Source of the DNA: an uncultured archaeon
GTDB taxonomy: Archaea > Asgardarchaeota > Jordiarchaeia > Jordiarchaeales > Jordiarchaeaceae
Length of the DNA: 32,000 nt
NCBI GenBank assembly: GCA_964510585.1
Contig: CAZECW010000187.1
Coordinates: 73,154-105,153, forward strand
Direction: 5' to 3'
Made by a program: the position numbers and the translations under genes. The notes below the pieces were generated by a model that had not been told where the DNA came from, made no database searches, and saw only the letters and a program-made list of their open reading frames with translations. Positions 6,303-24,051 of this stretch are shown here, in pieces (position 1 is the stretch's first letter; each line of letters opens with the position of its first letter).

Positions 6303-8357
6303 ATGGTTAATATGATTAAGGCGTTCCACATTCTTCTGAAGTCCGGTGAGCCCCTTTTCCACAGGGTTTATGGTAAGGAGCAGGTTGATGAATCGCTTTT
6401 TTCGGGGTTTCTAGGCGCTGTTTACAACTTTGCTCAGGAACTGGGCCATGGAGATATTAAGACTGTGGAGGTTGGTGATGCAAGGTTCGTATGCGAAGTT
6501 TCTGAGAACTTGATTTTCGTGGCTGTTGTTGGAAAAGACGACGATGAACAAGAACTAAAAAATTTTCTAGGCTTTGCTTCTAGAGCCTTTGTTAACCGCT
6601 TCAGAGAGGAACTTAAAACATGGCGTGGAAATGTGTCTATCTTTAGGGAATTCACCCAAGAGTTAGATCACTTAGTGGAAGATTATCAAACGAAGCGCCT
6701 CCCCGGTAAGGTTAAACTGGTGCCTTTTCTAAGAGATTCTTCTGGGGGATCAAGTTACCCCTTTGATGTGGAAATAGCCTCTGTTTTCTGTTTACTGGAA
6801 GATATAAGAGATCGTGGAGGGGGCTTTCTCTGGAAAAAGCCAGAGGAGGCGTTGAGGGGTATTGTAAGAGTTTTATGGCCTTTTTGGATAGTGCCTTTTG
6901 AGGATGGAGACCGGGGAGTTATAGTGGATGCTATGAGTATGGCGCCCCTCCAAATACGAACCAAGCGTTACTCGGCTTTAGATAAAGCTGATAATTTTCT
7001 CAAAATAAATAGTGTAGATGTGTTTGTAAATTCTCTTGAGGATCTAATATTGGATTTAGAAAGTGAGAAATCGGAGGAATTTCCACTATATGGATTTTTA
7101 GTTCCAGAGTTAGTTAAAGATTTGGAGATCAGCTTTTCTCAAGCCAGAGTGGGTGAGACTAAGGATTATGTTGTAGTCCGCCCCCTTGTAACTCGCACCC
7201 AGACGGTTGAGAATAAAACTGTTTTTATGAAGTTAATTCAAGATTTGGAAACAAGTTCTCAAAGACTAATGGAAAAGGAAAATTTCTTAACATTAATAAC
7301 TGAGAAGTGGCTTAAGGTAATAAATGAAAAGATGGTGGAGACCCGGGAAAGTTATAGAGTCAAAATAGAGGAAACAGTTAAGGATGTCGAGAAGCAGATT
7401 GGAATACTCTTACAGCTCAGAGAGGAGGAACTGAAAAAACTTGATGCTTGGTTTGCTGAAGCAGATAAGAATCTTATACTGGAAATAAAAGAATTGTTTG
7501 GTCCACTGATTGAGGTTTTAGAAGATGTGGCGCTGAAATCCACCGAGGAGATAGGAAAGTCAATCGATGAAAAAATTAGTGTGTTGGAAGTTATAGAGGG
7601 GAGAATTCAAAAATTAGCCAACGTTTCGGAGTATATGAATAAGACCAAGAAATTGGTGGAGAACATTTCTAAGAGTATAAAGAAAATTGATTCAACTATT
7701 GAGAAAATAAACAAGAAAATAGAAGTTGACAAAAATTCCATTCTGAAAGACTTTGACAGAAAAATCATGGAACAAAACAGTCGAGTAGACTCGCTAAAAG
7801 AAGAAGCAAAAGATGTCCTCAGCAAACAACAGTTTTTAATGGATAGAATTACATCTAAACTCCAAGAATTAAGGCAGCTGATTCAACGTGAACGCAAAGA
7901 AGTCGACCGGCTTTTAAAATTGTTAACTTCATTGATAATTAAATTGCCGGACAAAATATTTTCTCCATCTCTATTTTATATCCCCCTATATATTGGAAAA
8001 TTCGAAGATACGAAGCAAGAAAGATTTTTTGTGGTACCCCCATTAGTTCTGCTAAAATCGAATGAAACTATTAGTTGTGACTTTGGACAGAAAACACTTC
8101 CCCTGGATCTACCTAACCCTGCGTTTCTAGAAGCTGTAAAACGAAAGGCTGAAACACTAATTAATGATAGTAAGGAGCTAAAATTAGAAATTCTAAAGGG
8201 GTTTAAAAAATCAAATCTAATAAATTCGCAACAAATAGAGACAAGCGTTTACGAGGGCTTAAACAATCTATTACGCCTCAATATTCTTACTGAGAAGGAC
8301 TTTCAAATTTTGAAAGCTAGAGCCAAGGAGGTTTTTAGGACGGAGGAGAGAGTTTGA
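6303..8357 (+). CDS. Longin-domain protein with long coiled coil (Asgard-type), function unknown
   Basis: Residues 1-130 follow the Asgard longin pattern (GEPLFHRVY, DESLFSGFLGAVYNFAQE, WRGNVSIFREF). A beta-rich module, about 250 aa of heptad-rich helix and a second beta-rich module follow. Confidence 0.7.
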   Translation: MVNMIKAFHILLKSGEPLFHRVYGKEQVDESLFSGFLGAVYNFAQELGHGDIKTVEVGDARFVCEVSENLIFVAVVGKDDDEQELKNFLGFASRAFVNRFREELKTWRGNVSIFREFTQELDHLVEDYQTKRLPGKVKLVPFLRDSSGGSSYPFDVEIASVFCLLEDIRDRGGGFLWKKPEEALRGIVRVLWPFWIVPFEDGDRGVIVDAMSMAPLQIRTKRYSALDKADNFLKINSVDVFVNSLEDLILDLESEKSEEFPLYGFLVPELVKDLEISFSQARVGETKDYVVVRPLVTRTQTVENKTVFMKLIQDLETSSQRLMEKENFLTLITEKWLKVINEKMVETRESYRVKIEETVKDVEKQIGILLQLREEELKKLDAWFAEADKNLILEIKELFGPLIEVLEDVALKSTEEIGKSIDEKISVLEVIEGRIQKLANVSEYMNKTKKLVENISKSIKKIDSTIEKINKKIEVDKNSILKDFDRKIMEQNSRVDSLKEEAKDVLSKQQFLMDRITSKLQELRQLIQRERKEVDRLLKLLTSLIIKLPDKIFSPSLFYIPLYIGKFEDTKQERFFVVPPLVLLKSNETISCDFGQKTLPLDLPNPAFLEAVKRKAETLINDSKELKLEILKGFKKSNLINSQQIETSVYEGLNNLLRLNILTEKDFQILKARAKEVFRTEERV

Positions 8358-14193: not shown

Positions 14194-14820
14194 TTGTCCG
14201 TGATACCTATGTTGGATGCTTTTTATCAAAAATTAGGTGAGGACATCAAAACCGCTAACGATTTGGAGAAGAGGGGGGATTTTAGAGCTGCGGCGAAACT
14301 TTGGATTGAGATAGCTGAATACTGCTTAAAATTTGCTAGATCTGAATATGCTTCTGAGGAAATTAGAAAAAACCTTATTGAGAGGTCTGAAGGCTATATT
14401 GAGCATGCAAAAATGCTAAAAATTAGACCAGCACCCTTAAAGGGCTCCATAGAAAAAAGCTCCCAAGCAATAGACTATTTGGAAAAAGCTTTGGATGATA
14501 AGGTTAGAGCTGATAAACAGTGGATGGCCCTTGACCTAAACTCGTACATAATGACTATGTTTAGTGTAATTGAAAAACTCCTCTACCACGTTTATATATC
14601 CAAAACGGGTAATCTTCCAAGCCTCGAAGAAACATTTACTTCTCTTGTTAAATGGGCCTACAGGGAAGGAATCATCAGTGATCACCCCGACAATATTGAA
14701 TTCGTTAGGCTCCTTTACGAAAAATTATCCAAAAAATCGCAAAAAATAACTAGTGAACAGGCTATGGAAGCAAGAGAAATAATGGAGCGAGTGTATAAAG
14801 AGTTATGCGAAAACCTATAA
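14194..14820 (+). CDS. MIT-like domain fused to a degenerate HEPN/DUF4145-like helical domain
   Basis: Residues about 10-76 match the three-helix MIT pattern (A..LEKRGDFRAAAKLW..IAE...IERSEGYIEHAKMLK). The C-terminal half (VIEKLL...LVKWAYREGII...VR) resembles a HEPN fold without RxxxxH. The start is TTG 14194 or ATG 14209. Confidence 0.55.
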   Translation: MSVIPMLDAFYQKLGEDIKTANDLEKRGDFRAAAKLWIEIAEYCLKFARSEYASEEIRKNLIERSEGYIEHAKMLKIRPAPLKGSIEKSSQAIDYLEKALDDKVRADKQWMALDLNSYIMTMFSVIEKLLYHVYISKTGNLPSLEETFTSLVKWAYREGIISDHPDNIEFVRLLYEKLSKKSQKITSEQAMEAREIMERVYKELCENL

Positions 14821-15762: not shown

Positions 15763-16587
15763 TTACTTGCTAGAAATTTTTTTGAGCACATCTTGAATAT
15801 CATATAAGCAGGTTAAGACACTTTCTATATCAAGTATATCCTGCTGGAGCAAGTTGCCAGCACGTGAAAGATCTATCTGTAATCTGAGCATAAAGGGCGA
15901 AAAACCTTCATTTAATTCAGGGTTTTCCGTATAAATCGCCGCGTGTATCAAGTCAACGCCACCAAAGCCCAGGTCGAAAAGCAAGTCGTCAACTTTCAAA
16001 AGAAATTCGACTATTCGTTGCTTATCACCCTTGGTGCGTAGTTCTGCCTCGGCATCAGACAGACTCTTACTAATCTCGTCCAGCCTCTTTTTCAGAGAAT
16101 CCGTGTTTATAGGCATCTCCTCTCGATACATTGTTGCCTCTGGACAGAAATTAAACCACCACTCAAGGTAGTGCGCTGTGCTGCAAAAGAATTTTTTATC
16201 ATGATTTAATGGCTCCACGGAAACAGTGTACATGCATTCTTCACCACAAATAGTGCAAACCCCAGCCCCATCTTGATATGGTCTAATATCTCCACAAAAA
16301 GGTACACGAACGTACATAGCGTCGCCTTTAGGGGGTAAAAGTTTGGGGGGAATTTGCAACTCTTTACTGAACGGTTTTGAGTCTAATTCGGCAAATATTG
16401 CAGTCCAGACCGGGCCTCGTGGAGTTCTAACTAAAAGAGGGTTTCTTCTCGGGTGGTTGTTGCAATATGTCCAATACGGATCTTCGATTTTGAATTTTCT
16501 AACCTCACAGAAGGGCTCTTGGCTTTTATCACTATTTGCTTTATTGAATTTACAGGTTCCACAGCAATCGCTGCCACCATTAGGCAT
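15763..16587 (-). CDS. Hypothetical Cys-rich metal-binding protein with TRASH/YHS-like finger and C-terminal helical bundle
   Basis: N-terminal CCGTC...C...YCNNHP cluster, a second cluster CTICGEEC...FFCSTAH, ATG start with GGAGAG SD. No family recognised with confidence. Confidence 0.6.
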   Translation of the reverse strand: MPNGGSDCCGTCKFNKANSDKSQEPFCEVRKFKIEDPYWTYCNNHPRRNPLLVRTPRGPVWTAIFAELDSKPFSKELQIPPKLLPPKGDAMYVRVPFCGDIRPYQDGAGVCTICGEECMYTVSVEPLNHDKKFFCSTAHYLEWWFNFCPEATMYREEMPINTDSLKKRLDEISKSLSDAEAELRTKGDKQRIVEFLLKVDDLLFDLGFGGVDLIHAAIYTENPELNEGFSPFMLRLQIDLSRAGNLLQQDILDIESVLTCLYDIQDVLKKISSK

Positions 16588-16987
16588 AATAATTCTCTCC
16601 TAAAACCACACGCTGCAGTTAATCCTTTCTGCTTATCTGATATGTGCTTACATAGGGTCAGGGGGTAGTTGAATTTTGCACATTTCAGGTATATTTATTG
16701 GGTGTTGTAAGGTTTCGAGTGTTCATCGCTTCCAAAATGTTATGTGTGGTGTATCTTTCGTCAATAGTATGTGCTGAGTTGTAGTGTAATGCCATTTTAA
16801 TATATTTAACTGTTTTATCAATTTTTATATGAAATTATGGTGTTTCTGGGATTTTACTAAACTTCTTTTTTAAGAATTAGGGTAATACTCTGGTAACGTC
16901 TGGCTATAGTTTCTCACTCTACAGGGATAATAGTCAATATAATAAGTGACTTTCACTAGGTTTTTTAAAGGCGGTGGGTTCGATTTG

Positions 16988-18484
16988 ATGTCCCTGGATA
17001 GATTCAAGTGTACTTCTTGTAATGAGGCTGAGGCGGCTTACTACTGTGAGGAGTGCAAATCAGCTTTCTGTCTGGGATGCGCCCAGGAGAGAAGGGAGGA
17101 GTTTTTTATCTGCGGTTCATGTGGCTTCAAGGAAACAAACCTTGGAATGGATAGGGATAAGAAAAGCTCCTCAAGATGTCCGAATTGTGGTTCAACTGAT
17201 TTGAGATCTGGGATTAGAAAATGGAAACTTTGTCCTAATTGTCGCTCTGGTATGGTTATAAGCGTTCAAGATAAGAGGGTGGAGCTTAAAAAAACCTTTA
17301 TTGATAATGTTAACAGCATTCTATATGGTTATGAATTGTTGAAAGATTTTTCGAGGAGACTTAGGGAAACTAGAAAGAGGCTAATCTTTCTCAGGCACAG
17401 AAGGTATTTCCACTATCCAAAAATGGAGGAAACTCTAATCTCCCTTTTCCAAGAAATTATTTCCTTGAAAAAGAAGGTGGAGGCGCGGGCTCAACAGGTC
17501 TTAAATGTGATTCAAGTGCAACTCGTGGATTTTTCTTACCCTGATAATTGGAGCCCACGTGATTTTGCACAGATTCAAACAGCTGTGGACAGGATAAAAG
17601 CCGATGTGAATGACTACAAAGTATATGTGAAGGGTCTTATGGAACTACCTGAAAGGAATCTCGATACGGTTGTTTCCTTGGTAAAATTGCTGAGTTTTCA
17701 TTGGAAGTTCTTTGAGGAACATAGAGAAAAAATTGATTTAGAAATTGGGGAAAAACCTGTGGCAGCCATTCAGAGGGTAAAATATGTGGGAAGCTCTTTT
17801 CTCAGTTTAGAAAAATGTAGTGGAATACTTTTGTTAACAGATAAAAGGATAATTTTTATCAGAGAAAAAGGAATTTTAAACAAGTCGTACCAGAAACATT
17901 TTGAACTCCCCCTAAAAGCTCACAAAATCGTAGTTGAAGGATCAATATGGAAAAAACTCTCTTTTGAAGGTTCCCAAGGGGATGTGCGATTCTCCGCATC
18001 CAAAAATACCCTAAAAGCAATTGAAAGATACGTAGAATTGGCTAAAAACTTTGATAAAAGTTCCATAAAGGATAAAACCCAAACTGACAAATTGGAAAAG
18101 CTGGAAATAACCCTAGACGACCTGAAAACTGAGCTACACAAAAAAATTATGAGCGTTTTCACACCCCAAATTAAGGAGCCCACTCGCGGATTTGAACTAC
18201 AGCCACCTGTTCCCACCGTTACCCCCAGAGTTGCTCAAAAGTCCGCACCCCCACTAACCACTTATAATCGGGTACAAGTTCAAACTGTGGAAGGATCAAA
18301 AAGAGGGGATGTTCTGGATTGGGAACGAAGGAAATTCTCCATTGAGCAGCTTCTCAAAAAAATTGAGGAACTTTGGCGGCGTGGAGACATTTCTGTAGAG
18401 GAGTACCTGAAAAGAATGAAGAATCTTTATGAGGAACTCTACGTCTTGAACCAGAAATTAAAGGAAATCGAAGTTCAGGCGTAA
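16988..18484 (+). CDS. B-box/Zn-ribbon + coiled coil + PH/GRAM-like + steadiness-box (Vps23-core-like) protein; ESCRT-I-like
   Basis: Six CxxC pairs, a helical region, GILLLTDKRIIF (PH/GRAM-like) and a Pro-rich linker. The C-terminal FSIEQLLKKIEELWRRGDISVEEYLKRMKNLYEELYVL aligns by eye to the TSG101/Vps23 steadiness box. Start moved to ATG 16988 (GGTGG SD). Confidence 0.65.
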   Translation: MSLDRFKCTSCNEAEAAYYCEECKSAFCLGCAQERREEFFICGSCGFKETNLGMDRDKKSSSRCPNCGSTDLRSGIRKWKLCPNCRSGMVISVQDKRVELKKTFIDNVNSILYGYELLKDFSRRLRETRKRLIFLRHRRYFHYPKMEETLISLFQEIISLKKKVEARAQQVLNVIQVQLVDFSYPDNWSPRDFAQIQTAVDRIKADVNDYKVYVKGLMELPERNLDTVVSLVKLLSFHWKFFEEHREKIDLEIGEKPVAAIQRVKYVGSSFLSLEKCSGILLLTDKRIIFIREKGILNKSYQKHFELPLKAHKIVVEGSIWKKLSFEGSQGDVRFSASKNTLKAIERYVELAKNFDKSSIKDKTQTDKLEKLEITLDDLKTELHKKIMSVFTPQIKEPTRGFELQPPVPTVTPRVAQKSAPPLTTYNRVQVQTVEGSKRGDVLDWERRKFSIEQLLKKIEELWRRGDISVEEYLKRMKNLYEELYVLNQKLKEIEVQA

Positions 18485-18566: not shown

Positions 18567-19202
18567 TTACTCCTTTTCTTTGGGCTTCTTTGAACTCTCC
18601 AATTCCCTTTTCAGGTCTTCTAGCTCAGATGCCAAGGAAGATTTTTCTGTTATTATGTCCCCCTGCGGTACTTTGGGTTCCTCTATGCCCTCCAATGCAA
18701 TTTCCGCCTCTAGACGGTTTAACTCACTTTCAATATCTCCTGCCTCTTCGACGCCCATTTCGGAAGGAGTTGCCAAAATGTCTGAGCTTCTAGAAATATC
18801 GCGCATAGCTTCCTCTTGCTCTATAATCATTTCGAGTATCTTTTCTGAGTTGACGAGTTTTCGGGCGTTTTCAAGCTCTGCTCCGGCGAGTTCAAATGCT
18901 TCCTTGAGTTCTAAGACATCATAGGCTTCTTCTATGGCGATGATTCTCGTTTCAAGGTTCTCAATAAATGCGGTGTACTTGCCTAGAAAATTCTGGTATC
19001 TTCTGAATTTTCTGAGGGCGAATGTTGCCATGCCTTTGTTGCCCATTTTTAGATACTGTTTAGCCTTGTTTCTTTCCTCGATTGCCTTCCTCTCGTAGTT
19101 TCGTGAACGCAGAGTTAGCCTATTTATACTAGTTCTTAGCTGTGCGATTATCTCGTCCTTGTTTTTGGGCCTTTTTCCAAAGAGTATATCTTTAATACTC
19201 AT
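18567..19202 (-). CDS. ESCRT-III / Snf7-family protein, Vps20/32/60 (ESCRT-IIIB) class
   Basis: Basic N-half and acidic C-half. Motifs AKQYLKMGNKGMATFALRK, NLETRIIAIEEA, DIESELNRLEAE and PKVP (MIM2-like). Confidence 0.85.
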   Translation of the reverse strand: MSIKDILFGKRPKNKDEIIAQLRTSINRLTLRSRNYERKAIEERNKAKQYLKMGNKGMATFALRKFRRYQNFLGKYTAFIENLETRIIAIEEAYDVLELKEAFELAGAELENARKLVNSEKILEMIIEQEEAMRDISRSSDILATPSEMGVEEAGDIESELNRLEAEIALEGIEEPKVPQGDIITEKSSLASELEDLKRELESSKKPKEKE

Positions 19203-19226
19203 ACTTTTCTCCTCTAAGAGTATTCA

Positions 19227-19237
19227 TAGGTTACCTA
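19227..19237. promoter_or_regulatory. 11-bp inverted repeat TAGGT-T-ACCTA next to a TATA-like tract upstream of ESCRT-IIIB
   Basis: Minus strand reads GAAGTTATTATATTTAT-TAGGTAACCTA about 25-50 nt before the ATG. This suggests an internal promoter with an operator; the function is inferred. Confidence 0.3.
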
Positions 19238-19298
19238 ATAAATATAATAACTTCAATTCTTTATTAAACTATACTCTTTAGGCATTATTATACATATT

Positions 19299-20336
19299 CT
19301 ACCCATATATTCTGTTTATTTCTTTTTGTCTGGTTTCAATAAAATCGATGAAATTTTCCAGTGAAGGATCCTCCTCAGCTTCTTCATGAACTAGTTCTGC
19401 TATGCTGAGCAGGGAGGCTGCTACATGTGTGCGTGCGGGCTCGGATTTTATCTCGGGCTTAATGAGAGCTACTATTCTCTTTTCAAAATCATTGAAAGTT
19501 AAAATCCTATCCACAAGGAGAATAAATGATTCGGTTATTCCCCTCTCCAAGTCCTGTTTTTCGTCTAATATCAAGTTGGCTGCCAGATTTTTGAGGGCCG
19601 GTTTCACAATGTCCTCTCTAAACCAATTGAAAAGTTTGCTCTTCTTATCTGATGGAGGAAGAAAGCTTGAAGCAGGGGCACTAATATTTTTAGGCTCTTT
19701 TTTAAGGTTCTCCGCCATTTTATGAATATTTGAACTTTTAATGGTCTCCATTGCCGCTAGTACCAGCGACTTCACCCCCAAAACCACTTCTCCTCTACTA
19801 AACCCCTCTAACATTTTTTCCAGAGCATGTCTGGCTTCCTCGAAGGAAACCTCTTTTGAAATAAAAGACTTGAAAAGTTCCAAGATTTTTGCTCTTGTTT
19901 CCAGAGCTTCACTGTAACCAACGCTATCCAGTGTCAAGATTCTGTAGCCTGGATCCAGAACTTGCTTGTCAAACCATCTTACAACTATGTATTCATCAGT
20001 AATTCTCTCTAAATCTTTTAGAGTAAGTTTGGGATCAGCTTCCTCCAACTCATTGCAAAGCTGCGAAGCGAATGTTTCAAATACTGAAGAGACGTAGTTT
20101 TGGAGAACTTCATCCAATTTGAGACCTTCTAAAATCTTCTCAACCCTCTTTTTGAACGCGGGCTCAGAAATTTTTCCCTCCACCCGCTTTTTAAAATATG
20201 GAAACACTTTCTCCCTGACCATTTGAGATTTCTCAATAAAATTAGCTACAATACTGTCTAGGACGCCGAAAACCACATACTCAAAAAATTCTCTTAAGAT
20301 TTTTAGACCCTCTTCTGAATCAAAAATGTAGGGCAT
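19299..20336 (-). CDS. All-alpha-helical hypothetical protein inside the ESCRT-III operon
   Basis: 345-aa ORF starting 16 bp after the HerA-like gene, with normal composition. No family recognised. It has three repeated helix-hairpin motifs. Confidence 0.75.
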   Translation of the reverse strand: MPYIFDSEEGLKILREFFEYVVFGVLDSIVANFIEKSQMVREKVFPYFKKRVEGKISEPAFKKRVEKILEGLKLDEVLQNYVSSVFETFASQLCNELEEADPKLTLKDLERITDEYIVVRWFDKQVLDPGYRILTLDSVGYSEALETRAKILELFKSFISKEVSFEEARHALEKMLEGFSRGEVVLGVKSLVLAAMETIKSSNIHKMAENLKKEPKNISAPASSFLPPSDKKSKLFNWFREDIVKPALKNLAANLILDEKQDLERGITESFILLVDRILTFNDFEKRIVALIKPEIKSEPARTHVAASLLSIAELVHEEAEEDPSLENFIDFIETRQKEINRIYG

Positions 20337-20352
20337 TTAAATTCACCAAGAA

Positions 20353-23300
20353 TCATTCGATGAGTGACCTGCGCAGCTGCTCGATTTTTTCGAAAGTTTT
20401 CCTCTTTAAGAAAACATATTCATCCTCAGTCATCCTACCCAACTCAAAGTACTCATGTAGGCTCCTCAAATATTTCTGGAATTTCTCTATCTGCCTCAGA
20501 ATCTCCTCCTGCCTTTTCTCCTTATCAGACACCTGTTCTTCCTCCTCTTCCTCTAATGGTTTAACACCCACTGGTTCGCTTACCGGTTTACTAATTTCCG
20601 GTTTAACGCCCTCTTCGGCGCTGATTCTGGGTATTGGTGGTGGGCTGGGTAATTCTGGAAGTTCTTCCTCTGTTATGGTTTCTCTCGTTAAGGGTTTTGG
20701 TCTTGGTGTGCGGGGAGCCGCCTTTAAGCCTTTAACTGTCTCTTTAATTGTTGTTACCATGCCTGCTGCCTCATTTTTAAGCGCCGAAGTGGATGAAACA
20801 CTAATTATTGTGTTTTCCTCGGTTTCAACTATCCCTACGGCCAATCTTGATTTCTCCTTGGAGGCTAAAACTACAGGTACGCTTTTTGTTGTGTCTATCT
20901 CTATTTGCCAACCTTCCTCCTTCAATTTTGTGTAGATTTCACGGATGGCTTCTCTGCTATGCGCCTGTGTCACTATTGGTTCTGCTACTCCCTCCATTTT
21001 GGGGGCAGGGTACAAATGATCATAAAATCTGTATTCCAAGACTCGTTTTAGGTAGTCGGAGGCCAAATCCGTCGGTAAGCTGAGCACGGGCGGGGCTGGT
21101 ATTGATATGTCTGGGGACACTTCCACCATTTCTTCTTCTGTAACTTCTTCCAAAGCTTCTAAAGCCTCAGCCTCTGCTTCGGGTGTGCCTCTTGTTTCCT
21201 CAACAGTTTTCTCAATTTCTGGAGTGGCAACCTGTTTTGAAGCAATGGCTGTGAGTTCTTCAATTATCTTGGGAAGGGCTTCGCGGCCAGAATGCTGACT
21301 CAGCCTGGGTCTTATCTTAACTACAAGGGCACGGTTACTTGTGATAGATTCGTCTGAAACAATGGTCATTCCAACGGGAATGTTTCGTATAAATCCAGAA
21401 TCCTTTATTTCTATGGGGACTTCCGCTGGTGATCTTTTTATGAAGGCAATAATGTCTGGTTCATAGGACAAATAGTGTGTTATCAACACGTCTAGTTGAG
21501 ATAAAATTCTACTATCTGTGGCTGAGGGTTGCTGGGTCACAAGCACTAATCCACAGCCGGGTTTTCTTCCCAGTTTAGCATATTCTACGAGGGGTTCAGA
21601 AGCTGCGGTAACACCCTTAGAGGGAGCGAGTAGATGCGCTTCGTCAATCATCAGCCAAGTCACAGGAATCTCCGCCTCAACCTTTTCATCGATTGTTTCG
21701 CCCAACTGTGCAGCCTCTTCCATTCTTGATATCTGTGCTCTCACCTTGAGTATCTTACGTGCCAGTATACCAATGATTAGGGCACGCAGGCTGTCATCTA
21801 GATGACTTACGTCAATGACAGATACCTGATTGGGAACCGCTAACTGAGTTAAGCTAGTTCCTTTGGCTGAGAAGATTCCCCACTGATTCGCAGATGAAAG
21901 TCTAGCAACCAAAGCTCTTCTAGTGTCACGTCTAAATCCTTTGTCCTCAGAAATGATGTCGGAACAATTCTCGATACATTTAATTAAATCCTCTATGCTG
22001 TAATCGTTTCCTTTACCGGGGACATCTAGTTCTTGGTCATCAATTGTAGCTCTGTAGCCTTTTTTAACCCTATCAATGACCTGTTCTGTTAAGAGACCGA
22101 GCGTGCTAAACCTGTCTATACCAAAGGTGTGGCACCAATCGTCAGCTGTTAACTCTGAAGGCCTCAACGAGAAGGGCTTATCCCTCGTTTGCTCCGGAAC
22201 CTTATCATAGAAACCGATTGGAATAAAGACCTTCACGTTATCGAAGCCCTTGGGAGTGAGACTCCATTTTTCAAGAGCCTCCAATTCCTTTTCGTCCCAA
22301 TTGGGGTACTTCATACTCCAAAAAATTCCCATAGGATCAACAATAATTGTAGCGATTCCCAGTCTTGATTCAGCCAATTCCTCCGCAATGACTCCCATAG
22401 TGTAGGATTTGCCAGAGCCCCTATGACCACTTATAAATATAACGTGAGGCTTTACCCCATCAAGAAGAACCTTACAACCAAGCAGGTTCACATCTTTGCT
22501 GGTTCTCTCTCCCACACAACCAATGTAAAATGTTCCCTTGCAGCCAAGTTTGGCTTGTGTGGATTTTGTTCTCCCCAAAATTACTGATTCGCCCAAACTG
22601 TCTCTCAGAACGGTGAGTGGAGTGTCAACTATTTTAGGCGTGTCAACTATGTTTACCTTCTCAGAGTTAATTATGCTCGCCTCACCAAGAATGTAGGCCA
22701 ACGCCTGCCAATAGTCCTTCAAACTTTTAAGATCAATTTGTTCCGCAATATATCTTCTAAGCTTTGGTTGTTTTGGATACCTATCCTTATCGAAGCTCGA
22801 TAAGCTCCAAAGAAGGAAATCCGCGGTTTCCTGAGCCGATAGACCCCTTAACGGTTTAATAGCCTTTAAGGCTTTTTCCAAAAATTCCATACTATCTGTA
22901 GCCATGAATAGAAGTAGAAAGATTTCCCCCCGTTTATCTATATCAACTGTGCTTATTAGCTCAACCATCTTGTCCAGAAATTTGTCATCTTCATTGTACA
23001 TAAAACCTTCAAAAAGGATCTTTGCAATTTGTAGGTCGAGGGATTTCTGGAACAAAGCGAACCCGAATGCGGTTTGAAGAGACTTTTGAATCTTGTCGTT
23101 TCCCGCTTCTACCAATAGTGAACGAAAGGCATGGACAATTGCTGCTGTGGCTTCACCGTCTATTTCTCCCTTGCTTGAAAGCCAAGCTCCAGAATTTGAT
23201 TGTAGAGAAACCAGTTCTTCGGCGATTTCATTAGATTTCTCCAAGAAGGATTTATCACCCGTAGCCCTATACATGAGGATATGGCAGTTCAAAAGGTTGG

Positions 23301-23391
23301 CCCTATCTCTAATGGTCGCGGGTTCCACAGTCAAAACGTTCTGGATAACATTTGAAAGCAATTCGCATAGGGGTCTTCCCCTAACTAGCAT
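20353..23391 (-). CDS. Multidomain HerA/FtsK-superfamily (DUF87-type) ATPase with N-terminal alpha/alpha-toroid repeats and C-terminal helical hairpin
   Basis: Walker A GHRGSGKS (aa 322-329), IVDPMG, Walker B MIDEAH (aa 580-586), GRKPG Arg-finger segment, TQQPS and RPR..HSG. The N-terminal 240 aa contain YxATGDxxFLEK-type repeats and LQSNSGAW. The tail is Pro/Glu-rich. Confidence 0.85.
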   Translation of the reverse strand: MLVRGRPLCELLSNVIQNVLTVEPATIRDRANLLNCHILMYRATGDKSFLEKSNEIAEELVSLQSNSGAWLSSKGEIDGEATAAIVHAFRSLLVEAGNDKIQKSLQTAFGFALFQKSLDLQIAKILFEGFMYNEDDKFLDKMVELISTVDIDKRGEIFLLLFMATDSMEFLEKALKAIKPLRGLSAQETADFLLWSLSSFDKDRYPKQPKLRRYIAEQIDLKSLKDYWQALAYILGEASIINSEKVNIVDTPKIVDTPLTVLRDSLGESVILGRTKSTQAKLGCKGTFYIGCVGERTSKDVNLLGCKVLLDGVKPHVIFISGHRGSGKSYTMGVIAEELAESRLGIATIIVDPMGIFWSMKYPNWDEKELEALEKWSLTPKGFDNVKVFIPIGFYDKVPEQTRDKPFSLRPSELTADDWCHTFGIDRFSTLGLLTEQVIDRVKKGYRATIDDQELDVPGKGNDYSIEDLIKCIENCSDIISEDKGFRRDTRRALVARLSSANQWGIFSAKGTSLTQLAVPNQVSVIDVSHLDDSLRALIIGILARKILKVRAQISRMEEAAQLGETIDEKVEAEIPVTWLMIDEAHLLAPSKGVTAASEPLVEYAKLGRKPGCGLVLVTQQPSATDSRILSQLDVLITHYLSYEPDIIAFIKRSPAEVPIEIKDSGFIRNIPVGMTIVSDESITSNRALVVKIRPRLSQHSGREALPKIIEELTAIASKQVATPEIEKTVEETRGTPEAEAEALEALEEVTEEEMVEVSPDISIPAPPVLSLPTDLASDYLKRVLEYRFYDHLYPAPKMEGVAEPIVTQAHSREAIREIYTKLKEEGWQIEIDTTKSVPVVLASKEKSRLAVGIVETEENTIISVSSTSALKNEAAGMVTTIKETVKGLKAAPRTPRPKPLTRETITEEELPELPSPPPIPRISAEEGVKPEISKPVSEPVGVKPLEEEEEEQVSDKEKRQEEILRQIEKFQKYLRSLHEYFELGRMTEDEYVFLKRKTFEKIEQLRRSLIE
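22622..22650. repeat. Short direct repeat GTGTCAACTAT x2, period 18 (IVDTP duplicated) at the toroid/ATPase junction
   Basis: Perfect 11-bp copies at 22622-22632 and 22640-22650; the protein reads IVDTPK-IVDTPL. Confidence 0.7.
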
Positions 23392-23439
23392 AGTCGCTTC
23401 CCCTCAAATTTCCCTTATAAGTAGAAAAAGGGAAGAGTT

Positions 23440-24051
23440 TCAGAGTTCTTCTTTCAATTTTTTAATATCTTTTTCCAGTTCCTCAATCTTCCCGCTTGGT
23501 GCAGAGGGAAGCTTTACTCCGGTCTCCACACCGATTTCTTGGTCAATCTCGGAAATAGTTGCTGCAACCTCTTGGGATGTCACTTCGGTAGAAACCGTCA
23601 TCCTCTCCATTCCCGCCTCAGCCACATCCTGAGCCACGTCAAAATCCTGCATAGTTCCATCTATTTCCTCAACCATCTGGGCTATGTCTGGCAAGTTAAC
23701 TGCCCCCTTAAGTCCATTAAGGGCTGATCTAATGCCTGATAGAGTGCTGGCAACATCATAGATGGACTCGCTCTGGCGAAGCCTAACCACCATACCTTGA
23801 ATCCTAAGACGGTAGGCGTCTGTTGCTAGAGCCCATTTTGAATACCTTACGTAGTGTTCGGCGTACATTTTAGCTGCTTCCGTGTTTCCCCTGAGCCGGT
23901 ACTTCTTGGCTTCCTCCCTGTTTTTCCTGGATTCTCTCTCTAGCTGTTTTTTCTGATACTCAAGCTTGCGGGTGAACACTTCAAGTTTATAAATAACATC
24001 TTTAATTTTCGGTCCACCCTTAAGCCAACTCACAAACTTTTTTAGAGGCAT
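23440..24051 (-). CDS. ESCRT-III / Snf7-family protein, Vps2/24/46 (ESCRT-IIIA) class
   Basis: Basic helical hairpin (KKQLERESRKNREEAKKY, AAKMYAEHYVR), NLPDIAQMVEEI, an acidic tail, LPSAPS and a MIM1-like ELEKDIKKLK. Confidence 0.87.
   Translation of the reverse strand: MPLKKFVSWLKGGPKIKDVIYKLEVFTRKLEYQKKQLERESRKNREEAKKYRLRGNTEAAKMYAEHYVRYSKWALATDAYRLRIQGMVVRLRQSESIYDVASTLSGIRSALNGLKGAVNLPDIAQMVEEIDGTMQDFDVAQDVAEAGMERMTVSTEVTSQEVAATISEIDQEIGVETGVKLPSAPSGKIEELEKDIKKLKEEL

Follow-up and report, generated by a model that had tools for sequence, protein, structure and literature searches.

A Jordarchaeia ("Freyarchaeota") Asgard archaeon has its canonical ESCRT-IIIA/IIIB gene pair in the 32-kb stretch of DNA analyzed here (the window), where the pair brackets the genes of a HerA-type ATPase and of an orphan protein, termed Unk. 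Linkage of this ATPase to ESCRT-III is conserved across several lineages and looks functional, and the ATPase is, in the broad sense, probably a functional partner of ESCRT-III. We propose that the ATPase-Unk cassette would supply the ESCRT-III/Vps4 machinery with an accessory motor, working beside Vps4 and not replacing it. ESCRT-III and Vps4 are usually viewed as a scission machine of two parts, passed on to eukaryotes by Asgard archaea; another motor, from a different superfamily and encoded within the ESCRT locus in several Asgard classes and beside Vps4 in a further lineage, would add a component missing from current models and surveys. Surveys based on Vps4 neighborhoods or on coloured ESCRT domains miss the ATPase. 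In the literature on DUF87 or HerA proteins with ESCRT, Snf7 or Asgard ESCRT-III, the arrangement was not found described, and an accessory ESCRT motor of this kind looks undescribed.

The ESCRT-III cassette and its genomic setting

The four genes of the cassette lie co-directionally on the minus strand in the order ESCRT-IIIA, ATPase, Unk and ESCRT-IIIB, with intergenic gaps of 48 bp (IIIA/ATPase), 16 bp (ATPase/Unk) and 96 bp (Unk/IIIB). The ORF coordinates thereby confirm the order and spacing given in an earlier, sequence-only reading of this DNA, and Pfam matches and closest solved relatives likewise uphold the gene identities it had assigned, including the distinction between IIIA and IIIB. 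ESCRT-IIIA (P0001, 203 aa, 23440..24051, minus strand) is of the Vps2/24/46 or CHMP1-3 type; it matches Pfam Snf7 (PF03357) at 1.4e-17 with 64.4 bits, and its best solved relatives are CHMP1a, CHMP1b, CHMP2a and CHMP3. ESCRT-IIIB (P0004, 211 aa, 18567..19202, minus strand) is of the Vps20/32/60 or Snf7 type, with a Snf7 match at 8.9e-18 and 65.0 bits (Pfam cut-off 27.3 for both proteins) and with a Heimdall ESCRT-IIIB (9ftl) and yeast Snf7 as best solved relatives. This classing is consistent in reciprocal scoring over 56 loci. Read by eye, both ESCRT-III proteins end in MIM1-like helices. The ATPase (P0002, 1012 aa, 20353-23391, minus strand) is matched by Pfam DUF87 (1.2e-13, 52.1 bits, cut-off 23.2) and HerA_C (3.1e-06, 26.5 bits, cut-off 22). 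Inspection by eye further pointed at AT-rich, TATA-like boxes ahead of IIIA and IIIB and at T-runs following each of these genes.

Unk (P0003, 345 aa, 19299..20336, minus strand), the orphan partner of the ATPase, has no match in Pfam, NCBIfam, PADLOC or ESM Atlas features; the Atlas contains its exact sequence. With an iterative HMM, members of its family were located immediately 3' of the ATPase gene in f1, in f20 and in all loci of a Heimdall/Gerd-labelled clade, and only 22 representative clusters were retrieved among 1.84 billion proteins. Unk is a narrow orphan family tied to the position 3' of the ATPase. One divergent relative, P0147, is solitary, with neither an ATPase nor an ESCRT gene nearby.

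The convergent neighbor of the cassette (16946..18484, plus strand) encodes a Zn-ribbon/coiled-coil/PH-like/steadiness-box protein, recognized via weak Pfam matches to Zn_ribbon, an ANCHR-like B-box, bPH_3 and Vps23_core; by architecture, it resembles the Asgard ESCRT adaptor type "Znr_CC_PH_SB, cog.011556" (Makarova et al. 2024, PMC10936438). A stand-alone MIT-domain protein is encoded ~4 kb from the cassette (14194..14820, plus strand), its MIT match (7.9e-05, 23.1 bits) lying under the Pfam cut-off of 30. RNA-seq contigs of a ~92%-identical relative span the IIIA/ATPase and ATPase/Unk junctions and leave some stretches uncovered, which is a weak hint of expression, as assembled contigs cannot prove a single transcript.

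As the sequence-only reading had stated, no Vps4, ESCRT-II or NurA gene occurs in the 32-kb window; all three are present elsewhere in the genome. A complete Vps4 (MIT, AAA and Vps4_C) is encoded beside Vps25 on contig C140 (L072:9675-10841), SepF is grouped with Vps4 and Vps25 away from the cassette contig, and the ESCRT-I/II components EAP30, Vps28 and a UEV-SB Vps23 are found on other contigs. The ESCRT genes of Jordarchaeales are spread over three loci, with the cassette still together. The two Snf7 genes of the cassette are the only ones in the genome, and exactly two were counted in almost every one of the 201 Asgard genomes searched. NurA resides on contig C137, adjoining a separate 515-aa HerA paralog, and because of this separate NurA-HerA pair the ATPase of the cassette is not the repair HerA.

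Linkage of the ATPase to ESCRT-III across archaea

The order IIIA-ATPase-(Unk)-IIIB was identified in the genus of this archaeon, in the Jordarchaeales family f2, in f4 and f18, and in Hel-type genomes. Loci of f20 read IIIA-ATPase-Unk, with IIIB 18 kb away, and the Heimdall/Gerd-labelled clade displays ATPase-Unk-...-IIIB. In all linked loci, a Snf7 gene located upstream of the ATPase belongs to the IIIA type and one located downstream to the IIIB type. Recurrence of this gene order in multiple families of the phylum puts the synteny well outside what chance would produce; the sequence-only reading had tied the ATPase to ESCRT-III and staked this on synteny in other genomes, and such synteny proves to be conserved in many of them. 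In Hel-type, f4, f18 and f20 genomes, a full-length Vps4 with MIT is encoded divergently and directly beside IIIA of the IIIA-ATPase cassette.

Different arrangements were found on contigs whose ATPase cluster bears the NCBI label Nitrososphaeria/Nitrososphaerota. L081 carries Snf7-200aa-Vps25-like-ATPase-Vps4, L164 carries a Vps4 divergent from Snf7-196aa-ESCRT-II-109aa-ATPase, L166 carries 172aa-ATPase-Vps4 (gap 35 bp), and a further contig has the ATPase and an ESCRT-II/MIT-PLD block in divergent orientation. As this taxonomy is label-based and ESCRT-III on such contigs is Asgard-like, these loci are independent in gene order only. The 30 genomes nearest to that of L164 (G205) fall outside the Asgard set and lack the ATPase. 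With Vps4 adjoining the cassette in sister lineages and lying immediately next to the ATPase on Nitrososphaerota-labelled contigs, we regard the ATPase as supplementing the canonical ESCRT-III/Vps4 machinery.

Orthologs of the ATPase (E<=1e-40) are present in 63 of the 201 Asgard genomes, with none found in several well-sampled families among them, and the ATPase is therefore dispensable for ESCRT function; one Asgard genome lacking it (L075) harbors IIIA, IIIB and Vps4 side by side. In Thorarchaeota (f7), where 41 genomes have an ortholog, all 13 loci fetched are unlinked to ESCRT-III. No ESCRT-III gene was found within ~8 kb of the ATPase in Methanofastidiosa, Thermoplasmata, Hadarchaeota, DPANN or Bathyarchaeia, and the non-Asgard neighbors of the ATPase include neither a conserved partner nor an ESCRT gene, the counts being 6/40 for EMC6_arch and 4/40 each for a Hel308-type helicase and an Rce1-like protein. 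As the ATPase is thus widespread without ESCRT-III neighbors, its basic activity needs no ESCRT-III. In the ATPase tree, clades largely track lineage labels; as its backbone is poorly resolved, the Asgard linkages could descend from one ancient insertion.

Domain architecture of the ATPase

The core of the ATPase (aa ~263-720, 21232..22605, minus strand) is a P-loop motor of the HerA/FtsK superfamily, as judged by Pfam and motifs. The motifs Walker A (GHRGSGKS, residue 322), Walker B (WLMIDE, residue 579) and TQQP (residue 619) are all intact in P0002 and invariant in orthologs across lineages, and the core retains 45-53% identity between archaeal phyla. Its solved relatives found by sequence are HerA helicases only (E 3e-8 and weaker). 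No match to Pfam FtsK_SpoIIIE (PF01580) was obtained for P0002, its relatives yielding sub-threshold matches only (0.0036-0.021). A search of P0002 likewise returned no MIT, AAA+ module or Vps4_C above threshold and no transmembrane segment, the top 19-residue hydropathy being 1.28.

The N-terminal domain (aa 1-262, 22606..23391, minus strand) is predicted to form an (alpha/alpha)6 toroid: its AlphaFold model (meec300e20fab, pLDDT 91.8) comprises 12 helices, and Foldseek matches it to toroids of GH76, GH88, LanC and the alpha2-macroglobulin/complement TED (E 3.5e-4 to 1e-2, TMq 0.55-0.61). Across 43 orthologs, residues W195, P206, R212 and E237 do not vary. A check for a HAS beta-barrel found the model of residues 1-262 to be all-helical, ~50 residues before Walker A being outside the model. 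Toward the C-terminus, the model (m3328b521f624) contains an alpha+beta domain (aa ~768-890, 20722..21090, minus strand; pLDDT >90) resembling TBP, KA1 and adaptin-appendage platforms. VIA-align relates it to the phosphoglucomutase C-domain, KA1 and the alpha-adaptin and gamma-COP appendage platforms (Z 9.5-10.4 over ~85-95 residues), and Foldseek matches are weak. This fold is reported to recur in archaeal ESCRT loci (Makarova et al. 2024, PMC10936438).

A disordered, Pro/Glu-rich linker (aa ~891-949, 20545..20721, minus strand; pLDDT 49-66) contains the MIM2-like motif LPELP at residues 911-915. The motif occurs in part of the own genus only, f2 and all other lineages lacking it; with this restriction, it was dropped as a general mechanism. 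The protein ends in a helical hairpin (aa ~950-1012, 20356..20544, minus strand) modeled as two long helices with pLDDT >92, which is found in f1 and f2 orthologs only and is Jordarchaeales-specific. VIA-align matches of the hairpin mix the ESCRT-I headpiece, CdvA and CHMP hairpins with designed helical bundles, and their Z of 8-9 is generic and not above the helical-hairpin background, so that no kinship to an ESCRT-I steadiness-box or headpiece element is claimed for it.

With respect to the substrate, Euryarchaeal and DPANN homologs carry TrmB/MarR winged-helix and SAP domains fused to the same core. In the N-terminal region of Nitrososphaerota-type ATPases, a NucS_C nuclease match is sub-threshold (E 0.0056), and a profile of this N-terminus against the PDB found no nuclease. 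The fused domains and the NucS_C match, hints from distant paralogs or sub-threshold matches, suggest DNA as a putative substrate, as do the HerA DNA helicases that are the only solved relatives and the Hel308-type helicases among the non-Asgard neighbors (4/40).

Possible roles of the ATPase and comparison with known systems

In the mechanism we propose, the soluble ATPase would form a HerA/FtsK-like hexamer, would be recruited to ESCRT-III or the constricting membrane via its toroid and TBP/KA1-like domains and/or Unk, and would translocate a polymer, with DNA as the likeliest candidate, through the neck constricted by ESCRT-III or out of it, resulting in an FtsK-like clearing or loading coupled to scission. 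Pumping through an ESCRT-III neck, an alternative already named in the sequence-only reading, is the leading mechanism. Its specific version, a DNA translocase at ESCRT-III necks, is put forward tentatively and with somewhat less than even confidence. The fullest form, an FtsK-like DNA pump of ATPase and Unk adaptor that is coupled directly to ESCRT-III/Vps4 in Asgard archaea and the Nitrososphaerota-labelled lineage and clears DNA from, or loads it through, the scission neck, is possible but rather doubtful. If true, such a pump would be an archaeal answer to the problem of "DNA in the abscission site" in the lineage ancestral to eukaryotes. Pumping of DNA would link chromosome handling to ESCRT scission, an open question for ESCRT-dividing archaea, and a protein substrate would make the ATPase a new kind of ESCRT-III regulator.

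A partner of ESCRT-III working on protein would draw on the same linkage evidence: the ring might thread or remodel ESCRT-III subunits, adding to Vps4 a further motor for disassembly or turnover, or might act on cargo sorted into ESCRT-made vesicles. Type VII secretion uses FtsK/SpoIIIE-type ATPases and offers a model for a ring threading polypeptides. Moreover, the Asgard ATPases combine accessory domains of protein-interaction type (toroid, TBP/KA1/appendage-like domain, hairpin) with no recognizable DNA-binding domain, and the LPELP motif in the tail of the own genus could dock an MIT domain. We nonetheless consider action on protein unlikely, given that every solved relative detected by sequence is a DNA helicase or translocase, that distant homologs are fused to DNA-binding wHTH and SAP domains, that Vps4 is kept everywhere, leaving a second disassembly motor without obvious need, and that the MIM2-like motif is confined to part of one genus. 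We give about the same low credence to gene order that was merely inherited, in which ATPase and Unk were inserted by chance between IIIA and IIIB in an ancestor, the arrangement has not decayed, and the ATPase serves, for instance, DNA repair or chromosome handling. The frequency of the family without ESCRT neighbors, including the unlinked Thorarchaeota loci, is in line with it, as is the identical polarity of IIIA upstream and IIIB downstream in all Asgard loci, which a single origin predicts, and the tree backbone can be read without invoking many independent gains. Yet the linkage outlasts class-level divergence (Jordarchaeia, Hel-type, Heimdall/Gerd labels) despite a scrambled remaining ESCRT locus, three further orders with Snf7-like, Vps25-like, Vps4 or MIT genes exist in Nitrososphaerota-labelled contigs, and the intergenic gaps are short (16-96 bp).

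The sequence-only reading had inferred a second, non-canonical ESCRT-III system; in one of its versions, independent of Vps4, the HerA-type ring would take the place of Vps4 as the filament-disassembly motor. The lack of Vps4 in the window and, for the f2 loci examined, within ~6 kb on either side of the cassette fits this idea, which is now largely refuted and highly improbable. The reading had itself named as refutation that these might be the sole ESCRT-III genes with vps4 simply relocated and no interaction between ATPase and ESCRT-III; the genome search found the first two to hold, with Vps4 relocated to C140 in Jordarchaeales, so that this clause applies in part. The two-gene Snf7 complement, here and in nearly all Asgard genomes searched, and the complete Vps4 beside Vps25 leave little room for a second system, and replacement is contradicted by the Vps4, full-length, that four further lineages encode right beside this cassette and by the Vps4 abutting the ATPase in Nitrososphaerota-labelled contigs, as well as by the MIM1-like terminal helices seen by eye. 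A HerA-type ATPase of a defense system or mobile element that landed in the ESCRT-III locus is equally far-fetched. Several anti-phage systems are headed by HerA-type ATPases, and PADLOC reports matches at the superfamily level (mad8 at 8.9e-17, several HerA defense models down to 1.4e-15); however, no nuclease, Sir2, methylase, integrase, cognate effector or other defense partner is encoded in the cassette, Unk and the neighbors match no PADLOC model, ATPase clades mostly track lineage labels with a stable position, and the GC content of the cassette is not distinct from its surroundings.

Compared with the canonical Asgard ESCRT-III/Vps4 locus (Hatano et al. 2022, PMC9192718; Makarova et al. 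2024, PMC10936438), the same two ESCRT-III classes are present here and Vps4, Vps25, EAP30, Vps28 and UEV-SB Vps23 exist in the genome, whereas the ATPase and an orphan gene separate IIIA from IIIB, and Vps4 and Vps25 lie on another contig in the Jordarchaeales order. HerA, FtsK and DUF87 are unmentioned in the text of both papers, and the only such entries in the supplements of Makarova et al. 2024 (PMC10936438) concern ordinary HerA-NurA genes from Crenarchaeota. With archaeal HerA of HerA-NurA(-Mre11-Rad50) end resection (PDB 4d2i, 9x1l), P0002 shares the P-loop superfamily and the DUF87 and HerA_C matches. It differs from HerA proper in scoring only 46.4 bits with NF040819 (cut-off 970) and 45.5 with NF040937 (cut-off 800), in the lack of a NurA partner at the cassette, in an N-terminus (aa 1-262) predicted to be an alpha/alpha toroid instead of a recognizable HAS barrel, and in the additional TBP/KA1-like C-domain.

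Bacterial FtsK/SpoIIIE belongs to the same superfamily, and the proposed shared logic is a ring translocase genetically tied to a membrane-constriction machinery. FtsK carries a winged-helix gamma domain, and distant homologs of the ATPase possess a C-terminal winged helix. Unlike FtsK/SpoIIIE, P0002 has no FtsK_SpoIIIE match and no transmembrane anchor, its partner is ESCRT-III and not FtsZ, and its DNA pumping is proposed only. Vps4/CdvC is likewise a ring ATPase (the ring being predicted for P0002) encoded beside ESCRT-III, but the motor of P0002 is a HerA/FtsK ASCE P-loop instead of AAA+, MIT and Vps4_C are missing from it, and both genes coexist in the same loci. Compared by description only, HVO_1301 of Haloferax volcanii (bioRxiv 10.64898/2026.07.16.738847) is similar in being a HerA-domain protein at an archaeal division site, detected at midcell in a screen of a divisome that is FtsZ-based.

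Locus organization and the ESCRT complement of the genome

Four minus-strand genes occupy positions 18567-24051 of the window, in the order ESCRT-IIIA (IIIA; 23440-24051; Pfam Snf7, 1.4e-17), a 1012-aa HerA/FtsK-type ATPase (20353-23391; Pfam DUF87 and HerA_C), a 345-aa orphan protein termed Unk (19299-20336; no Pfam match) and ESCRT-IIIB (IIIB; 18567-19202; Pfam Snf7, 8.9e-18). Gaps between successive ORFs are 48, 16, and 96 bp, and gene order and spacing agree with the initial sequence-only reading. Its A and B labels are likewise right, because the nearest relatives among solved structures are CHMP1a/1b/2a/3 for the upstream Snf7 protein, and Heimdall ESCRT-IIIB and yeast Snf7 for the downstream one. 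Transmembrane segments were found in none of the four proteins. RNA-seq library contigs from a relative span two gene junctions of the cassette, a weak hint of co-expression. The window DNA was found in hot-spring metagenomes, and close ATPase orthologs carry the NCBI labels Jordarchaeia, Jordarchaeaceae or ‘Freyarchaeota’.

A convergent neighbor (16946-18484) with a Zn-ribbon/PH-like/Vps23-core signature resembles the ‘Znr_CC_PH_SB’ family of Makarova et al. 2024 (PMC10936438), and a weak MIT protein is encoded at 14194-14820. A 274-aa ORF without Pfam match (15763-16587) separates the proteasome alpha gene from the gene of this Zn-ribbon/PH-like protein. Further along, a 684-aa protein (6303-8357) combines an N-terminal longin domain (Fuz_longin_1, 6.1e-07) with long coiled-coil-like sequence.

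The genome (G000; 3.78 Mb, 96% complete) contains exactly two Snf7 matches, both inside the window, which spans C187:73154-105153. Snf7 matches were obtained in 194/201 Asgard genomes, with exactly two in almost all, and the pair in the window is the canonical ESCRT-III pair. Contig C140 encodes a complete Vps4 (MIT, AAA, AAA_lid_3, and Vps4_C), with a Vps25-type ESCRT-II gene directly after it and SepF next; contig C4 carries a UEV-steadiness-box Vps23, Vps28, and an EAP30 protein together. The ESCRT set of this organism is therefore complete and spread across three loci. The sequence-only reading had proposed a second, non-canonical ESCRT-III system in which the ATPase could take the place of Vps4 or pump DNA or protein through an ESCRT-III-shaped neck. 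Its observation holds and the tie of the ATPase to ESCRT-III is supported, but neither a second system nor a loss of Vps4 is borne out, and the ‘Vps4-less’ arrangement is a local peculiarity of Jordarchaeales. The locus is a canonical Asgard ESCRT-III locus plus an undescribed HerA/FtsK-type motor with an orphan partner. On C140, Vps4, the Vps25-type gene, and SepF run head to tail on one strand (L072:8364-10841); this placement of an FtsZ-anchor gene immediately after ESCRT genes may merit attention in an Asgard archaeon.

Distribution and gene order of the ATPase

ATPase orthologs (E<=1e-40) are present in 63 of the 201 sampled Asgard genomes. Profile scans of fetched flanks for Snf7, ATPase, Unk, and Vps4 revealed four patterns. 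The complete order IIIA-ATPase-Unk-IIIB was found in the window’s own genus. The Asgard families f2 (from the same taxonomic order), f4, and f18 show IIIA-ATPase-IIIB, lacking Unk, as do Hel-type genomes, Hel_GB_B among them. Family f20, with records labeled Promethearchaeota or Hodarchaeota, displays IIIA-ATPase-Unk, with IIIB 18 kb away, and a clade labeled Heimdallarchaeota or Gerdarchaeota shows ATPase-Unk-(0 to 2 genes)-IIIB. Synteny, the lack of which in any other genome would have counted against the first reading, recurs as IIIA-ATPase-(Unk)-IIIB in the own genus, f2, f4, f18, and Hel-type genomes. Without exception in linked loci, a Snf7 gene upstream of the ATPase is of IIIA type, and one downstream of it is of IIIB type. 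Full-length Vps4 adjoins IIIA divergently in f20, Hel-type, f4, and f18 loci. As IIIA, IIIB, and Vps4 lie side by side in G034, a genome without the ATPase, the cassette looks like an insertion between IIIA and IIIB. ESCRT linkage was absent from 13/13 fetched Thorarchaeota (f7) loci and from f25; 41/49 f7 genomes encode an ATPase form of roughly 750 aa.

Several of the fetched loci show further features. In Heimdall/Gerd-type loci, the gene immediately upstream of the ATPase invariably runs divergently and encodes a Pfam-less protein of ~1040-1085 aa (L048:2632-5745, L096:4579-7836, L098:4612-7725, L111:57-3218, and L079:2594-5749); this gene is followed by a LarC-type (Ni_insertion) gene and a gene of roughly 350 aa. 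L088 (DATKTP010000243.1), a complete Hel-type Vps4/IIIA-ATPase-IIIB locus, is labeled as the bacterium ‘Candidatus Deferrimicrobium sp.’, probably a binning error. An 80-aa ORF in genome G005 (L036:2073-2315), located ~2 kb downstream of the full-length ESCRT-IIIB gene, is a second copy of its C-terminal third, and in L091 (966-1614) ESCRT-IIIA is broken into two overlapping ORFs by a frameshift or an assembly error.

Outside the Asgard sample, a clade of ATPases of roughly 620-770 aa includes one cluster that three NCBI MAG records assign to Nitrososphaeria or Nitrososphaerota. Gene orders here are Snf7-200aa-Vps25-like-ATPase-Vps4 (L081), Vps4 divergent from Snf7-196aa-ESCRT-II-109aa-ATPase (L164), and 172aa-ATPase-Vps4 with a gap of 35 bp (L166); on a Logan contig, the ATPase runs divergently from an ESCRT-II/171aa/208aa/MIT-PLDc block. 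L163, also a member, lacks ESCRT neighbors. Because the labels rest on NCBI records and the Snf7 proteins are Asgard-like, we take these loci as independent at the level of gene order and not as proof of separate phyla. A gene on a Logan contig of SRR13394437 (5923-6777), divergent beside the ATPase and near Vps25-like genes, encodes MIT fused to a phospholipase-D-type domain (PLDc_2), which could be an ESCRT-III-docked lipid enzyme.

Homologs with cores 45-53% identical occur in Methanofastidiosa, Thermoplasmata, Hadarchaeota, Thermococci-labeled MAGs, DPANN groups, and Bathyarchaeia. In these non-Asgard groups, ESCRT genes were found beside none of the homologs and no conserved neighbor emerged; the core occurs in fusions with winged-helix domains of TrmB/MarR type, with SAP, and with DUF835. 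EMC6_arch, an archaeal EMC6-like membrane protein, accounts for 6/40 immediate neighbors (e.g., L094, L097, L106, and L134). On the core tree, whose backbone is weak, the ‘linked’ label requires at least 6 to 8 changes, compared with ~23 for shuffled labels.

Architecture of the ATPase and its putative partner Unk

The ATPase motor comprises residues about 263-720, with Walker A, Walker B, and TQQP intact. NCBIfam yielded only HerA, VirB4, and CedD matches, all far below threshold, and PADLOC matches are at superfamily level only. In the predicted structure, residues 1-262 form a 12-helix (alpha/alpha)6 toroid (pLDDT 91.8) resembling those of GH76, GH88, LanC, and thioester domains. The long forms of Asgard and Bathyarchaeia possess the toroid; in its place, Nitrososphaerota-type ATPases have a region that matches NucS_C below threshold. 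Behind the motor, an acidic linker leads to a predicted alpha+beta domain (residues about 768-890). In structural comparison, its top matches lie within a single Z unit of each other (9.5-10.4) and comprise phosphoglucomutase C-domains of TBP-like fold, KA1 domains, and platform subdomains from alpha-adaptin and gamma-COP appendages. KA1 domains bind membranes. The TBP/helix-grip fold is recurrent in archaeal ESCRT loci (Makarova et al. 2024, PMC10936438). Either kinship to that fold or KA1-type membrane binding would suit recruitment, the match being at fold level only. Only Jordarchaeales possess the disordered Pro/Glu-rich linker and, at about 950-1012, the helical hairpin.

Unk belongs to a narrow family: 1.84 billion proteins contain 22 representative clusters, whose representatives are all stand-alone (320-416 aa). 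In each of the 23 hits near the ATPase, Unk directly follows it downstream, and its invariant residues include DFEKR-like and DDPSL-like motifs. We interpret Unk as a partner dedicated to the ATPase. A divergent relative, P0147 (383 aa), has a TPR protein and a giant protein of 7032 aa as neighbors (L167:4046-5197 and L167:6805-12197), with no ATPase or ESCRT gene nearby.

Putative function and substrate

Neither Hatano et al. 2022 (PMC9192718) nor Makarova et al. 2024 (PMC10936438) mentions HerA, FtsK, or DUF87 tied to ESCRT; our literature search found no paper combining DUF87 and ESCRT, and other term combinations returned nothing relevant. The present analysis contributes the Unk family with its constant place in the locus, the ortholog count of 63/201 broken down by family, an overview of Vps4 adjacency, three additional gene orders of Nitrososphaerota type, the C-domain of TBP/KA1/appendage-like fold, and the separate NurA-HerA pair of G000. 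The existence of this pair argues against the cassette ATPase being the repair helicase, an identity that we reject.

Since the ATPase also occurs with Vps4, Vps25-like, and MIT genes in varied orders, the linkage pattern best supports a role of the cassette as an accessory module of the ESCRT-III/Vps4 machinery. DNA would be the favored substrate, on the indirect grounds of superfamily membership, solved relatives that are exclusively HerA, DNA-binding fusions in paralogs, and the NucS-like N-terminus; action on a protein substrate is a serious rival to DNA. In Haloferax, the HerA-domain protein HVO_1301 is reported at midcell (2026 preprint, bioRxiv 10.64898/2026.07.16.738847).
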